A stretch of 46,566 bases of DNA, from positions 1 through 46,566 of IMG/VR virus record IMGVR_UViG_3300011445_000031, one strand, 5' to 3'. The DNA is from a virus. Positions 1 through 46,566 of this stretch are shown here, in pieces. The translations under genes were made by a program, and so were the position numbers. Under the pieces are notes generated by a model, which did no database searches, had not been told where the DNA came from, and saw only the letters and a program-made list of their open reading frames with translations. Position 1 is the stretch's first letter, and each line of letters begins with the position of its first letter.

Positions 1-123
1 AAAGGTTTTCCTAATGCTATTTTTGATATGGATAGAAGTGGTGCAGTTATAACTTGGTCATATTTCCATAGTCAATCTGTGCCTTTATTGTTAAGATACG
101 TCCAAGACAATGACCTGTGGACA
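1..123. repeat. Terminal overlap, identical to 46444-46566 (circular closure of the contig)
   Basis: Base-by-base comparison of the first 123 nt with the last 123 nt shows identity. The repeat lies in frame inside a coding sequence. Confidence 0.95.
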
Positions 124-36272: not shown

Positions 36273-36830
36273 TCAAGAGGCGGCGCCGGAGGCTTTTTCA
36301 CTGGCAAGTTCTTCAAGAGTAATTGATTCATGATTGTTTAATACCTTTTCAGCTTCAATAAGTTTTTCGAACATACCTTTAACGGCACGTGCTGGCATTG
36401 GAACCATTGTTCTATCACCAATAGATACGACTCTATTTCCATCATCAGTAATAACTTTAGGCTGAAGTTGTTGTGGAAAGATAAGAGTTAATCCTACAGT
36501 AGGGTTATTATAGTGTCCGGCGGGCAATTGTGTTGCTTTATTTGCATTCTTAATTCGTGCAACAGCTTCAAGTATCCTGGTAAGATCATCAACATCAAGT
36601 TCATTATTAACTTGAATATTAAGTTGCTTAAGCGTGTTTTCTTCTAACTGGTCATATTTAGTTGCTAAGCGCGTAGCAATATGCTCCTTCATTTTCTCAC
36701 GAAGGCGCTCTTTAAACTGTTCATTCTCTTTAAGTAGCTCACTGATATAAGCTTCACTACAACCACACATAGATGCTACTTGTACCGCTTTATATCCTTG
36801 AGCTAATAGGTCTGCAATTTGTTCTAGCAC
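36273..36830 (-). CDS. terS: Terminase small subunit (N-terminal HTH)
   Basis: First gene of the late operon, with a GTG start. The N-terminal segment GYKAVQVASMCGCSEAYISELL is HTH-like. Confidence 0.6.
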   Translation of the reverse strand: MLEQIADLLAQGYKAVQVASMCGCSEAYISELLKENEQFKERLREKMKEHIATRLATKYDQLEENTLKQLNIQVNNELDVDDLTRILEAVARIKNANKATQLPAGHYNNPTVGLTLIFPQQLQPKVITDDGNRVVSIGDRTMVPMPARAVKGMFEKLIEAEKVLNNHESITLEELASEKASGAAS

Positions 36831-37405: not shown

Positions 37406-38080
37406 CTAGCTCATATCTTCAAGTGTCTTAGCACGACTACCGAGTGCATCAACGGCTTTTTCAATCGTGCGACTGTAGCGCAATTTATCAGTTTCATTCA
37501 GTCCAGGCACCCATTGCTTCAAGTGCCCTTCTAGCGCGTCAGCGAATTGATCTTTGCAGGTCTGGATGCTGCTACCATCTACAAAGAGATCAGCCAACAG
37601 TTTAACAACTACATCCGTTTTATTCTTAGCCTTGAGATATGCAGCGAATGAAGCTTTCGCAAGGTGACGCGCTTTCAGTGCTTCCCCGCTACGCTCACCA
37701 ACAGCGACCAGTTCCTCAAAGTTCTCAGGAAACTTCATTCCATCTTTCAGGTTAGAACCATCAACCTTATTCCTGTTCTGTGCCTTGCAAGCTTGAACAA
37801 TCGCAAATTGCAACCAGTCAAGTTTTTCATCTTCAAAGCACAGAATACCATCCTCATCTTTTCCATTCTCATCTATCCCTTCATCTTTGTTAGCGGGTTT
37901 CAATTTACCCGTCAGTCCAAAGTCCATGATAGACGGATACGGCATTGGCAATTCCGCAATTTTCTGATACTTGTTCTTGCCAGTTACCTTATCCTCAATC
38001 GTTTCATTGATAACAAACTTGAGCACGTTACTGAAAGCTTTTGCTACGGCTTGTGCTACTGCTGTTTGTGCTTCACTCAT
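37406..38080 (-). CDS. Leftward early orphan protein (224 aa, acidic central region)
   Basis: Good SD (AAGGAAatacaATG) and its own consensus promoter. I recognised no motif. The acidic stretch is DEGIDENGKDEDGILCFEDEKLDW. Confidence 0.7.
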   Translation of the reverse strand: MSEAQTAVAQAVAKAFSNVLKFVINETIEDKVTGKNKYQKIAELPMPYPSIMDFGLTGKLKPANKDEGIDENGKDEDGILCFEDEKLDWLQFAIVQACKAQNRNKVDGSNLKDGMKFPENFEELVAVGERSGEALKARHLAKASFAAYLKAKNKTDVVVKLLADLFVDGSSIQTCKDQFADALEGHLKQWVPGLNETDKLRYSRTIEKAVDALGSRAKTLEDMS

Positions 38081-38156
38081 TGTATTTCCTTTATCAGTTG
38101 TGCGAGATTAGGTTGTGTAACCGGGCAGTATCCCGCTTTCCCGACCGTTAAAAATC

Positions 38157-38185
38157 ATTATACAGGAAACAATAAACCATGTCAA
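38157..38185 (-). promoter_or_regulatory. Perfect-consensus sigma70 promoter (leftward early)
   Basis: On the - strand: TTGACA (38185-38180), a 17-nt spacer, then TATAAT (38162-38157). This is ~75 nt upstream of the ATG at 38080. Confidence 0.75.
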
Positions 38186-38214
38186 CCTTTATTATCGGGT
38201 TGATCTGCGAATGG

Positions 38215-38588
38215 CCGAATACCCCAAATGGCCGAATCCGTCACGGCTACCCTTCCCCGACACACGGACTGGTAAAATCTCTATTCATTGTCTCCCATGC
38301 TCTATTCATATGTAGATGGGCAAGGTATAAGCCTGTATGTGTAGTCTAGTGTGTATATGTAGATTACTATATCACAATAGATAGAGGGTATATCAGGTTA
38401 TAAAAAAACGATTACCCCTTAAATATAAGAGAGGCAGAGGGAAGCATGTGCTGTTATTAGTAGATACAGGCTTATGTATAGGATACACAATAGATCATGG
38501 GAGGGAATAAGTAGAGATTTATAAATCCGTGTGGCATGGATACCCTAGACCCCCGGTGTTTTCCCATTTGGCGGGTTTTCCTATTCGG
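38215..38588. repeat. ~375-bp imperfect palindrome with iteron-like repeats and an A7 centre (candidate origin or regulatory hub)
   Basis: Mirrored blocks: CCGAATA / TATTCGG (38215 / 38582), CCAAATGG / CCATTTGG, CACACGGA / TCCGTGTG, AAATCTCTA / TAGAGATTT, CTCCCATG / CATGGGAG (38292 / 38496), and ATAAGCCTGTAT / ATACAGGCTTAT (38327 / 38464). The centre is near 38401, next to the A7 run at 38402-38408. Confidence 0.8.
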
Positions 38589-38599
38589 AGCGCCCATCC

Positions 38600-38644
38600 T
38601 ATTCTATTCTAGTGGAGAATAGCTATTGTAATGAGAATAGAATA
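38600..38644. repeat. 45-bp palindromic element upstream of the rightward early promoter
   Basis: TATTCTATTCT (38600-38610) and AGAATAGAATA (38634-38644) are perfect 11-bp arms. They are concentric with the 10-bp palindrome AATAGCTATT (38618-38627). Confidence 0.8.
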
Positions 38645-38672
38645 ACACAGTGGCGCATAGTGAAAATTGTTC

Positions 38673-38702
38673 TTGACAGTCCGGGCCGGACTATGAGATA
38701 AT
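38673..38702 (+). promoter_or_regulatory. Sigma70-type promoter (extended -10) for the rightward early operon, with a palindrome in the spacer
   Basis: TTGACA (38673-38678), an 18-nt spacer, then TGaGATAAT (-10 at 38697-38702). The spacer contains the perfect palindrome GTCCGGgCCGGAC (38679-38691). The 5' hairpin CGCACT-AAAAA-AGTGCG (38709-38725) sits at the predicted transcript start. Confidence 0.65.
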
Positions 38703-38791
38703 CCGAAACGCACTAAAAAAGTGCGCTTACAAAATGGTGCAGCGCAACATAGACAATAGGATGCACAAGCAAGAATAAAGGATAAGAGACA

Positions 38792-39199
38792 ATGAAAAGG
38801 ATTAATAAAGTAAATGATGAATATAGCTTTATGCTAACTGAAACAGGCAAGCTATATGATGCACGTATTAAAGGTTATATGGATAATCTGATAACTGCTA
38901 AGTGGCAGTTTATAGCCGTTGAGCAACAAAGAGGCGTATGTTATTACGGGCACAAGGTAATAACAATCCCTATGTATGCAATACGCAAGGGAATAGATCA
39001 TACCACGTATTATCTAGCGCATGAAATGGCCCATGCTTATGCAGGATATAAAGCAAATCATGGGCCGTTATTCATGGAATGGCTTGCTAAAATATGCCCG
39101 ATAGAATGGCAATACATGGAATATGAATACAAGCCACGTCATGCGGCAAATGCAGGATTAGCAATATCAAATGAAATGTTAATGAGATATAAAGGATAA
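38792..39199 (+). CDS. SprT-like zinc metalloprotease
   Basis: YYLAHEMAHAYAGYKANHGPLFMEW contains HExxH plus the downstream HG..F/W that is typical of SprT-like domains. It is the first gene of the rightward operon and has an SD (TAAAGGATAA). Confidence 0.65.
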   Translation: MKRINKVNDEYSFMLTETGKLYDARIKGYMDNLITAKWQFIAVEQQRGVCYYGHKVITIPMYAIRKGIDHTTYYLAHEMAHAYAGYKANHGPLFMEWLAKICPIEWQYMEYEYKPRHAANAGLAISNEMLMRYKG

Positions 39200-39396: not shown

Positions 39397-40617
39397 ATGG
39401 ATAAGATACAAGAACTAAAGTATCGCTTTGCTAGTGATACAAGTTATAGATTCGCAGATATGCCAATCAATGATATAGAACAATTCATTGATGATTTTAA
39501 CTATACAGGCATTAACGCAACTATAACGCAATCAAAGTATGCTAAACGCGCAGGATTAACACAACTGAAAACGATAATGCCAATTATAGAACATATAATC
39601 GCGCCAATAGAAAAAGCCTTTTATGATTCAGTATGCGGTATCTATAGTCCTATTCCTCATTCAGATACAATAAAGCCTGAACAATACCGCAGGATTCAAT
39701 CAGATCAACCGATACCATTTACTAAAACTATACAACATAATAACCATAGAACAAAAGAAAACATACTACATCTCGGCACATATACACGCTGCATTTGTGC
39801 GGAGACTGGTATATCTTTTGCTGTAGCGTTACCGAATCCGCTTCATATTACCTTTACACTCTTACACCCATTTGCATTTTATCCTAACGTAATAGCAGAG
39901 ATAAAAGAGTGTCAGAAAACAGGCTATCCAGTTTCATCATTTGATAGTCAAGCTTTAGCAGGGATGTTAATAACAATACTAAAGCATAAAGGTTATGCTG
40001 TTTGCCGTGATTATGTTGCTGCTAATGCGCGCCTTAGACAAGTTAATCGCAAGTCTCTAACATGGGCATTATCTTATTTTCATAAGGCTACAATGCGCCA
40101 GAATTTGCCACAGATTAACTTACTTGCTGATGGTAATCCTACAACGCAATTAATAGGATTCATACAGATATGTAAAGGTGAGGATTCATCCTTACAAGCG
40201 CATCATGTATTTCAAACAAAAGAAAAGAAAATAACAGCGCGTGTATTTCAGACTGAACACGCAAAAGAATCAGCGGAATTACGTAATGATATTAAATCAT
40301 GCCGTTCTATATTAGAGCGCATACAAAAAGATAATACGCATGTATCTGATACACTCTATACACAAATAGATCAACGTATTAGTAAGATAGCTGTTATGAA
40401 TGATACAGCAAAAGAAAATCTTATTGCTGATATTATTGGCGCATTTGGTGATACAGCTAACACTAAGGCACTCGCTCTTATTATACGTGCTAATGATATG
40501 ACAGCGACACAAAAAGAACTTCTATCCTTTAGCATGGAAATAGAAAAGGATTTAGAAGGATTTAAAACCAATAAGAAACCTATAAGCTTTGCTGAATTAA
40601 TGGGTAAGGTGAAATAA
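39397..40617 (+). CDS. Large early orphan protein (406 aa)
   Basis: Long ORF with the TAAAGGATAA RBS context. I recognised no motif. Confidence 0.7.
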   Translation: MDKIQELKYRFASDTSYRFADMPINDIEQFIDDFNYTGINATITQSKYAKRAGLTQLKTIMPIIEHIIAPIEKAFYDSVCGIYSPIPHSDTIKPEQYRRIQSDQPIPFTKTIQHNNHRTKENILHLGTYTRCICAETGISFAVALPNPLHITFTLLHPFAFYPNVIAEIKECQKTGYPVSSFDSQALAGMLITILKHKGYAVCRDYVAANARLRQVNRKSLTWALSYFHKATMRQNLPQINLLADGNPTTQLIGFIQICKGEDSSLQAHHVFQTKEKKITARVFQTEHAKESAELRNDIKSCRSILERIQKDNTHVSDTLYTQIDQRISKIAVMNDTAKENLIADIIGAFGDTANTKALALIIRANDMTATQKELLSFSMEIEKDLEGFKTNKKPISFAELMGKVK

Positions 40618-46180: not shown

Positions 46181-46566
46181 CGATACAAATTTGGTATCAC
46201 GGTAATTGTGATGATGGTTTTGGTTCAGCATGGGCAGTAAGTCGTTGGTTTAGGAAGCATGAACCATTGATGGATATAAACTATGTTCCATGTTTTTATG
46301 GAAAAGAGCCACCTCCCGTTAAAAAGGAAGATATAATCTATATTGTTGATTTTTCGTATCCAAGACCTATTCTTGAACAAATAAAAGATTGTGTCACACG
46401 TCTTACAATTCTTGACCATCATAAAACAGCACAGGAGGATTTAAAAGGTTTTCCTAATGCTATTTTTGATATGGATAGAAGTGGTGCAGTTATAACTTGG
46501 TCATATTTCCATAGTCAATCTGTGCCTTTATTGTTAAGATACGTCCAAGACAATGACCTGTGGACA
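46177..46566 (+). CDS. DHH/DHHA1-family phosphoesterase, 5' portion (continues at position 124 after removing the duplicated 123 nt)
   Basis: ATG 46177 overlaps the upstream stop (ATGA). DHH motifs are HGNCDDGFGSA, IVDFS and ILDHHKT. The frame is open to the window end and in frame with 1..588. Confidence 0.85.
   Translation, partial: MTIQIWYHGNCDDGFGSAWAVSRWFRKHEPLMDINYVPCFYGKEPPPVKKEDIIYIVDFSYPRPILEQIKDCVTRLTILDHHKTAQEDLKGFPNAIFDMDRSGAVITWSYFHSQSVPLLLRYVQDNDLWT
46444..46566. repeat. Terminal overlap, identical to 1-123
   Basis: Direct comparison with the window start. Confidence 0.95.

Follow-up and report, generated by a model that had tools for sequence, protein, structure and literature searches.

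The 46,566-nucleotide (nt) virus record IMGVR_UViG_3300011445_000031 of IMG/VR, analysed here over its full length and referred to as the window, carries at positions 38186-38672 a non-coding region whose 385-base-pair (bp) imperfect palindrome is built around a conserved asymmetric core and has arms that remain mirror-like within each genome while diverging between genomes. From this anatomy, conservation and mode of evolution we infer that the region is probably a platform to which proteins bind at the level of double-stranded DNA (dsDNA). That this hub is a replication origin coupled to promoter control is a more tentative proposal, drawn from its position and anatomy. For this lineage we found no account of a 385-bp palindrome with a conserved asymmetric core and concerted evolution around it. 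An initial annotation of the window had described the region as free of open reading frames (ORFs), iteron-like and situated between divergent early promoters, and had favoured a multi-site DNA element over a source of small RNAs.

The palindrome spans 38205-38590, and its symmetry centre, at approximately 38398-38401, adjoins an A7 run at 38402-38408. Local alignment of the region to its own reverse complement gives a score of 105, as compared to 30.3 +/- 5.7 for shuffled sequences (~13 standard deviations higher), and this is the maximum among 306 overlapping 600-bp windows genome-wide, for which the median is 34, the 95th percentile 56 and the best unrelated window 60. The inverted duplication, the direct repeats and the separate 45-bp palindrome of the initial annotation are all present where it placed them, with the limits of the duplication now refined. 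The palindromic region is not an assembly artefact, as assemblies made independently (JGI, ENA, Logan and NCBI) share its layout. The bounds 38186-38672 are the exact gap between the -35 hexamers of two outward promoters (487 bp). The region holds only ORFs of 31-56 amino acids (aa), none of them conserved, in agreement with its earlier description as ORF-free; the weak tblastn matches that these ORFs have in a few relatives appear consistent with shared DNA motifs. The features of the region and its borders are as follows.

38157..38185 (-): leftward sigma-70 promoter, TTGACA-17-TATAAT, 12/12 consensus positions.
38205..38240: left outer array, four (C/G)(G/A)AAT units spaced 8, 9 and 8 bp with G+C-rich spacer, holding both copies of AATGGCCGAAT.
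38205-38231 / 38564-38590: mirrored pair I3, 70% complementary.
38210 and 38227: perfect direct repeat AATGGCCGAAT, two copies 17 bp apart.
38254..38276: left ACACACGGA block, with its mirror partner AAATCCGTGTGG at 38518-38540 (pair I4, 74% complementary).
38275..38306: left copy of the 32-nt mirrored block AAATCTCTATTCATTGTCTCCCATGCTCTATT, partially conserved in relative L008; partner at 38489-38520 (pair I1, 84% complementary over 32 nt).
38279 and 38300: perfect direct repeat CTCTATTCAT, two copies 21 bp apart, in the 32-nt block.
38308 and 38355: perfect direct repeat ATATGTAGAT, two copies.
38327..38338: left perfect 12-nt mirrored box ATAAGCCTGTAT; partner at 38464-38475 (pair I6, 12/12).
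38339..38463: unique A+T-rich interior between the innermost mirrored boxes, with GTAGAT/ATAGAT motifs in a single orientation.
38345-38356 / 38483-38494: mirrored pair, 92% complementary.
38373 and 38486: perfect direct repeat CACAATAGAT, two copies 113 bp apart, bracketing the core.
38401..38430 (+): conserved asymmetric core TAAAAAAACGATTACCCCTTAAATATAAGA.
38464..38540: right-arm counterparts of the 12-nt box, 32-nt block and CCGTGTG block.
38556..38590: right outer array GTTTTCCCATTTGG / GTTTTCCTATTCGG, mirror of the left array.
38596..38644: CTATTC/GAATAG (AATAG) operator-like cluster, 30-75 bp before the early promoter's -35 hexamer, including pairs I7 and I12.
38600-38644: 45-bp palindrome TATTCTATTCT-N23-AGAATAGAATA, perfect 11-nt arms with 23 nt between them.
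38673..38702 (+): rightward sigma-70 promoter, TTGACA-18-GATAAT, 11/12, its -10 hexamer scored as preceded by TG.
38709..38725 (+): stem-loop CGCACT-AAAAA-AGTGCG, located where the early transcript is predicted to start, flanking the palindrome and outside it.

The perfect direct repeats are pairs of 10-11 bp, and they lie alongside mirrored A-tract arrays with a period of 8-9 bp. The G+C content is 27-40% at 38340-38480 versus 52-62% in the outer arms, a composition suited to melting of the interior. The TAGAT motif occurs five times on the plus strand of 38186-38672, four of them within the interior, and is missing from the minus strand of the same interval, while CTATTC/GAATAG is found 7 times where 0.39 occurrences are expected (18-fold, P = 2e-7); the recurrence of both cores, as first annotated, therefore holds. 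Both promoters are near consensus and both point outward, as the initial annotation had it, but they are not two early promoters. The leftward promoter heads the minus-strand operon for packaging and structure, which comprises a 224-aa gene, a TerS-like gene, TerL, portal and capsid/structural genes, and the rightward one heads the early/replication operon. No inward-pointing promoter and no terminator was found within the window's region.

Relatives of the region were located by searches with the neighbouring 224-aa and 406-aa proteins, which yielded about ten independent lineages (numbered with L below), with Polaromonas phage Tiera coming from a phage collection; a first metagenome scan gave no relative, and a second added one, L036. 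A blastn search of the region against 50,697 deposited phage records gave no match. In the relatives the parts occur in a shared order: an outward promoter, a G+C-rich A-tract array, mirrored boxes, an A+T-rich interior with the asymmetric core, mirrored boxes and an array again, often an AATAG-rich operator-like stretch, and the outward early promoter. This layout recurs in L001, L002/L012/L014, L010, L015, L017/L019, L016, L021, L007/L036, L040 and L041, so that relatives devoid of the repeat architecture, which the initial annotation had listed among its refuting outcomes, are not what was observed; L041 is a distant relative whose homologue of the 406-aa protein is just 27% identical and whose self-complement score is 122 versus 31 +/- 6.5. 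The palindrome is significant in the window and in L001, L002, L010, L015, L017 and L041. Both promoters are kept in all relatives, the leftward one as TGTCAA ... ATTATA on the plus strand and the rightward one with its G+C-rich spacer. The right-arm block, in the version AAATC(C/G)G..CAC, is found at the same place in L001, L002, L007, L017 and L036, and in L001, L002, L007, L015 and L017 the early promoter is preceded by AATAG-type repeats. A strand bias of ACAATAG (17 versus 3 genome-wide) was also considered and dropped, as it ranked only about fifth among 1174 heptamers and had no extended consensus.

Of the arms and interior, the core alone aligns between genomes. It aligns across 9 genomes with the family consensus T-A5-N(1-3)-TGA-N(1-3)-(A)CCC(C)-TTA-A3-4-N-A.AC, recurs in L036, L040 and the distant L041, and has the same orientation in every genome, with its A-run on the late-gene side. 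In the blastn alignment to L001 it is the sole part of the arms and interior that aligns (82.5% identity), and it is retained even in genomes where the rest has changed. The arms behave differently. Between most genomes they do not align, as blastn between genomes covers only the core and the early-promoter side, and even for the closest relatives the alignment is no better than that of one window arm with the other: the arm-versus-arm score is 71 in the window, as compared to 34-61 against the orthologous arms of the closest relatives, a mean of ~30 for all pairs and a shuffle null of 20. As the arms are mirror-like within each genome while diverged between genomes, we conclude that they undergo concerted evolution. 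Even the unit of the outer array differs in every genome, being GGCCGAAT in the window, GCTnAAAA in L017 and CCCGAAAC in L015.

The pattern of divergence between the arms indicates what is being maintained. Aligned arm positions in six genomes comprise 469 Watson-Crick pairs, 37 G:T, 36 A:C and 108 transversion-type mismatches, a spectrum that has neither wobble enrichment nor strand preference. Since G:T and A:C mismatches are equal in number and transversion-type mismatches dominate, base pairing is not what is conserved. Most of the identity between the arms falls instead in perfect boxes of 12-15 bp with diverged spacers between them, which is the pattern expected of binding sites. The suggestion of the initial annotation that selection acts on short sites and not on a long RNA stem is therefore upheld, as is its view of the region as a multi-site element at the DNA level, for which the absence of G:U and strand bias in the arms, of an inward promoter in the window and of an Rfam match argues.

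In the mechanism we propose, the mirrored arms would assemble the same phage-specified protein on either side of the core, or would bend the DNA into the same shape there, and the core would be recognised by a component conserved across the family. Negative supercoiling from the two divergent promoters would, in our opinion, help to open the A+T-rich interior; the locus would act as a bidirectional replication origin, and the same complex would balance the early against the late promoters. An origin and hub are favoured because the region lies where the early and late genes diverge, has a meltable interior and mirrored arrays, belongs to a phage that encodes proteins for its own replication (PolA-type DNA polymerase, primase, Dda-like helicase and exonuclease), has a precedent in the origin of Ceduovirus and has an episomal relative, as episomal persistence is described for one member of the family in which the closest classified TerL relatives (~38% identical) are placed (PMC13348215). 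More precisely, the region sits between back-to-back consensus promoters, at the switch in gene orientation and at the minimum of the cumulative GC skew.

Several observations weigh against this proposal. The minimum in GC skew cannot be separated from the effect of gene orientation. The region has no DnaA box within one mismatch, a scan for the integration host factor (IHF) consensus gave a match in one relative only (L007), and no Rep-like Pfam or PHROG match was obtained for the ten flanking genes, so that an initiator was not recognised. The repeats fail the iteron definition, and here the initial annotation does not stand in the strict sense, as the region has no three or more direct repeats of 17-22 bp, no DnaA box and no Rep-type initiator gene nearby. 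The outer arrays, whose alternation of A/T and G/C bases peaks at 8-9 bp across 7 genomes with a z of about 10, had been selected by eye ahead of that test. In Tiera and the L007/L036 lineage the palindrome is weak or falls short of significance, and the more distant PaMx41 and LUZ24 lack it. Finally, the two family-conserved proteins encoded next to the region offer no recognised initiator: the 224-aa protein has no match in the PDB by sequence or fold and no Pfam family, and the 406-aa protein has no PDB sequence match and no family, with a predicted model (mean predicted local distance difference test, pLDDT, of 61) too poor for a fold search.

Comparison with known systems places the region among viral non-coding control or origin regions, its closest functional analogue being the c2-type origin and its closest positional analogue the LUZ24/T7 junction. 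The origin of Ceduovirus (c2-type) phages is non-coding, lies between divergent early and late modules, and differs in sequence between groups while its function is kept; it contains an early promoter that gives a non-coding transcript, and it works in plasmids without phage proteins (PMC7150918). The window's region is likewise ORF-free and placed between divergent early and late modules. Unlike the c2 origin, its promoters both fire outward with none inside 38186-38672, it has no blastn relatedness to the c2, bIL67 or 923 origins, and its long mirrored arms and conserved core are not part of the c2 description (PMC7150918). The junctions of LUZ24-like phages (Bruynoghevirus, tf) and of T7 resemble it in being long, non-coding, rich in short repeats and located at the boundary between early and packaging/late genes, and LUZ24 shares the flanking outward sigma-70 promoters, with its 184-bp repeat centred between them. 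Iteron origins such as lambda ori and P1 oriR are similar in that short repeated sites stand beside an A+T-rich stretch and A-tracts accompany the repeats; the window differs from them in lacking at least three tandem 17-22 bp direct repeats, a DnaA box and a recognisable Rep gene, and in having a mirrored symmetry with an 8-9 bp period. The SV40 core origin and the oriL and oriS of herpes simplex virus have mirror-symmetric initiator sites around an A+T-rich centre, between divergent early and late promoters. The window has no homology to these origins, which function in other hosts with other replication proteins, and unlike them it has an asymmetric centre and arms that are much longer and imperfect. 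In PaMx41, which is classified in the Fredfastierviridae, the divergent region and the record junction (NC_055711, 1874-2248 and the junction; L028/L029) hold short direct arrays that are not mirrored, namely AGGATTAG with ~10 bp spacing, GGTCAAGGTA in four copies and GGGAATAG; the presence of short-period arrays in control regions seems to extend more widely through this phage group.

Because the region is the genome's only large non-coding stretch, roles in replication, packaging and transcription are not mutually exclusive. A role in packaging, which we consider doubtful, survives best among the alternatives. Here the core, or the direct pair of CACAATAGAT around it, would mark where the terminase cuts concatemers, either as a pac site or as the edges of a terminal repeat, with the arms organising the complex. 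The operon with the TerS-like gene and TerL begins just downstream of the region, and in LUZ24 a 184-bp terminal repeat lies midway between outward sigma-70 promoters (326, 184 and 332 bp) and has the direct 10-bp core GGGGAATATC at both edges. Phage tf is described likewise (PMC3517423), and the T7 concatemer junction is also packed with short repeats. The repeats at these junctions are, however, direct and not mirrored (GGGGAATATC at both terminal-repeat edges in LUZ24; CCTAAAG arrays; all of the T7 SRL and SRR repeats), with no significant palindrome, and the window's TerL is nearest to those of EBPR podovirus 3 and Tiera (43-45%), followed by the PaP2/119X/PaMx41 group (38.5%), and not to that of LUZ24. 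On these grounds synteny with the LUZ24 terminus was given up as the principal explanation and retained only as a rival. In L002, TAGAGATA is found at offsets similar to those of the CACAATAGAT pair, and no consistent pair was seen in the other relatives.

Evidence on the proteins and the genome ends bears on packaging in both directions. The helix-turn-helix (HTH) of the TerS-like protein (GCSEAYISEL) is nearly invariant across the same genomes in which the arrays vary, which argues against the arrays as TerS-specific sites; the core, being conserved across the family like the HTH, could fit such a role. The TerS-like gene itself is 1.35 kb and two genes away, whereas pac and cos sites (SPP1 pac, lambda cosB) lie in or beside TerS. 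The window is a circularised assembly with a 123-bp overlap, in which a terminal repeat would have been collapsed, and the contigs of several relatives break inside the region; their ends are scattered and not stacked at a single nucleotide, and are uninformative for physical ends. The record of EBPR podovirus 3 (JF412296.1; L030, L031) is open exactly between the first late-side and the first early-side genes, while that of PaMx41 opens elsewhere than its divergent region. In the PaP2/119X/PaMx41 group, 'terminally redundant ends', given for phage Shea, was the only statement found on termini, and the Tiera paper reports none for Tiera. In the partial record JF412296.1 the equivalent region is the part that failed to assemble, and in Tiera (L023, 1629-1772; OQ067478, 43928-44071) it contains a perfect 72-bp tandem duplication. 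This duplication may be genuine, or re-opening of the record upstream of terS may have brought together two copies of a short terminal repeat.

A purely transcriptional or architectural switch, in which the arrays and the AATAG/CTATTC sites serve the two promoters and have no part in replication or packaging, is unlikely. The location of the sites is compatible with such a switch: the left array begins ~20 bp upstream of the left -35 hexamer, both arrays in L010 and L041 are ~25-30 bp from their -35 hexamers, and the CTATTC/GAATAG and AATAG sites are strongly enriched and, in all relatives, clustered upstream of the early promoter. The first early genes also differ between relatives and include small basic or Cys-rich proteins, which could co-vary with the arrays. 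In phage phi29, proteins p4 and p6 set early/late timing at the divergent A2b/A2c-A3 promoters, which are spaced by roughly 200 bp. The window has divergent promoters and enriched inverted AATAG/CTATTC sites, but its 487 bp between -35 hexamers is much larger and, with a deeply conserved core ~210-275 bp from either promoter, exceeds what promoter control usually needs. A switch would also have to account for a core that is conserved even where all else changed, and no regulator homologue was identified among the flanking genes.

Two explanations invoke pairing between the arms. In the first, which is quite improbable, the palindrome is a self-homogenising fold-back element whose arms pair as single-stranded DNA (ssDNA) or extruded DNA during replication or packaging, with the core at the tip. 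If true, the core would be a start site for priming, or a site of cutting or copying that regenerates genome ends, and copying of one arm from the other would explain why arms that diverge between genomes are alike within each. No self-homogenising fold-back element is described for this phage lineage. The second, a more general fold-back structure in which the arms form a cruciform, an ssDNA hairpin or an RNA hairpin with the core apical and act in priming, in terminal-repeat duplication or as a non-coding RNA, is highly improbable. Covariation of the arms within each genome, around a conserved 'loop', is a classic signature of structure, and the predicted folds are better than those of shuffled sequences (RNA, -134.5 and -126.8 kcal/mol, z = -3.7; DNA, -56.7 kcal/mol, z = -3.7). 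However, mismatches occupy approximately 25-30% of the arm positions and are accompanied by several indels, extruding a cruciform from such an imperfect repeat is unfavourable, and the mismatch counts over six genomes favour transversion types over wobble pairs. An RNA or ssDNA stem was consequently set aside as the principal explanation, as a z of about -3.7 restates the inverted repeat and the mismatch spectrum is that of arms without selection for pairing.

Transcription of such a stem is also disfavoured, and an RNA stem is unlikely because there is no G:U bias, no inward promoter in the window and no Rfam match, either at gathering thresholds over the whole window or at E <= 10 over 37900-38900; a scan for tRNA and tmRNA found none. 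The small-RNA alternative of the initial annotation is disfavoured by the same promoter, terminator and Rfam results. In the opposite direction, an extra near-perfect leftward TTGACA-17-TATAAT promoter is found on the left side of the region in L007 (~245-276), L010 (~330-363) and L036 (positions in reverse-complemented upstream coordinates), and transcription from it in L010 would cover the left outer array. Duplication or insertion of the left promoter seems to have occurred in these lineages, and partial left-side transcription is possible in them, although it is not a feature of the family. Lastly, that the palindrome is a neutral relic, an inverted duplication of promoter-upstream DNA without a function of its own, is already hard to credit, since despite its diverged, indel-bearing arms a relic would not stay mirror-symmetric in lineages whose arms no longer align with each other, nor would it retain a conserved core.

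The genome around the region is that of a podophage-like virus of roughly 46.4 kb from an uncultivated lineage distantly related to Fredfastierviridae. The first and last 123 bases of the window (1-123 and 46444-46566) are identical and lie within a DHH-phosphoesterase gene; joining them restores a single DHH-phosphoesterase ORF, from which it follows that the window was opened at an arbitrary point and that the genome is ~46,443 bp. Genes on the minus strand run from 38080 to 10721 (TerS-like, TerL, portal, major head and virion proteins), and those on the plus strand from 38792 through the junction to 10456 (SprT-like, Dda-like helicase, exonuclease, Sak4-like, PolA-type polymerase and primase). 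The 711 bp between them (38081-38791) are the biggest non-coding gap of the genome and its only large one. TerL is 43-45% identical to its homologues in EBPR podovirus 3 and Tiera, and 38.5% identical over 87% of its length to the PaP2/119X/PaMx41 group, the nearest among classified phages.

The TerS-like gene is at 36273-36830, with the palindromic region starting 1.35 kb upstream of it and two genes between. The first gene of the late operon (37406-38080, minus strand) encodes the family-conserved 224-aa protein, which has an invariant VGERSGEALK stretch and a confident AlphaFold model (pLDDT 89) that may represent a new fold. The 406-aa early protein (39397-40617, plus strand) is conserved in the relatives; its residues C132, C134 and H157 are invariant, its C-terminal half is helical, and it is a candidate DNA-binding or initiator protein for the region. 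In the early leader (38709-38760), the stem-loop is followed by a conserved TGCAGCGCAACAT element, and both recur in L001, L040 and other relatives; together they may form a leader that stabilises the mRNA or has a regulatory role. A stereotyped translation-start motif, TAAAGGATAA(T/G)nAnAATG, precedes the early genes (window 38780-38795; L001, L002 and L040) and recurs ahead of successive small genes in the relatives.

Phage origins and packaging sites are rarely recognisable from sequence alone, and here a compact locus, recognisable by its layout, points to the main cis-acting control region in a lineage of uncultivated podophages distantly related to Fredfastierviridae. The contrast between a slowly evolving core and arms that evolve rapidly and in concert predicts two binding partners, one conserved and one lineage-specific. 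If the locus is a terminus, it would correct how such genomes should be opened and annotated; if it is an origin, it would be of use in constructing replicons and in interpreting marker-frequency data from viromes.

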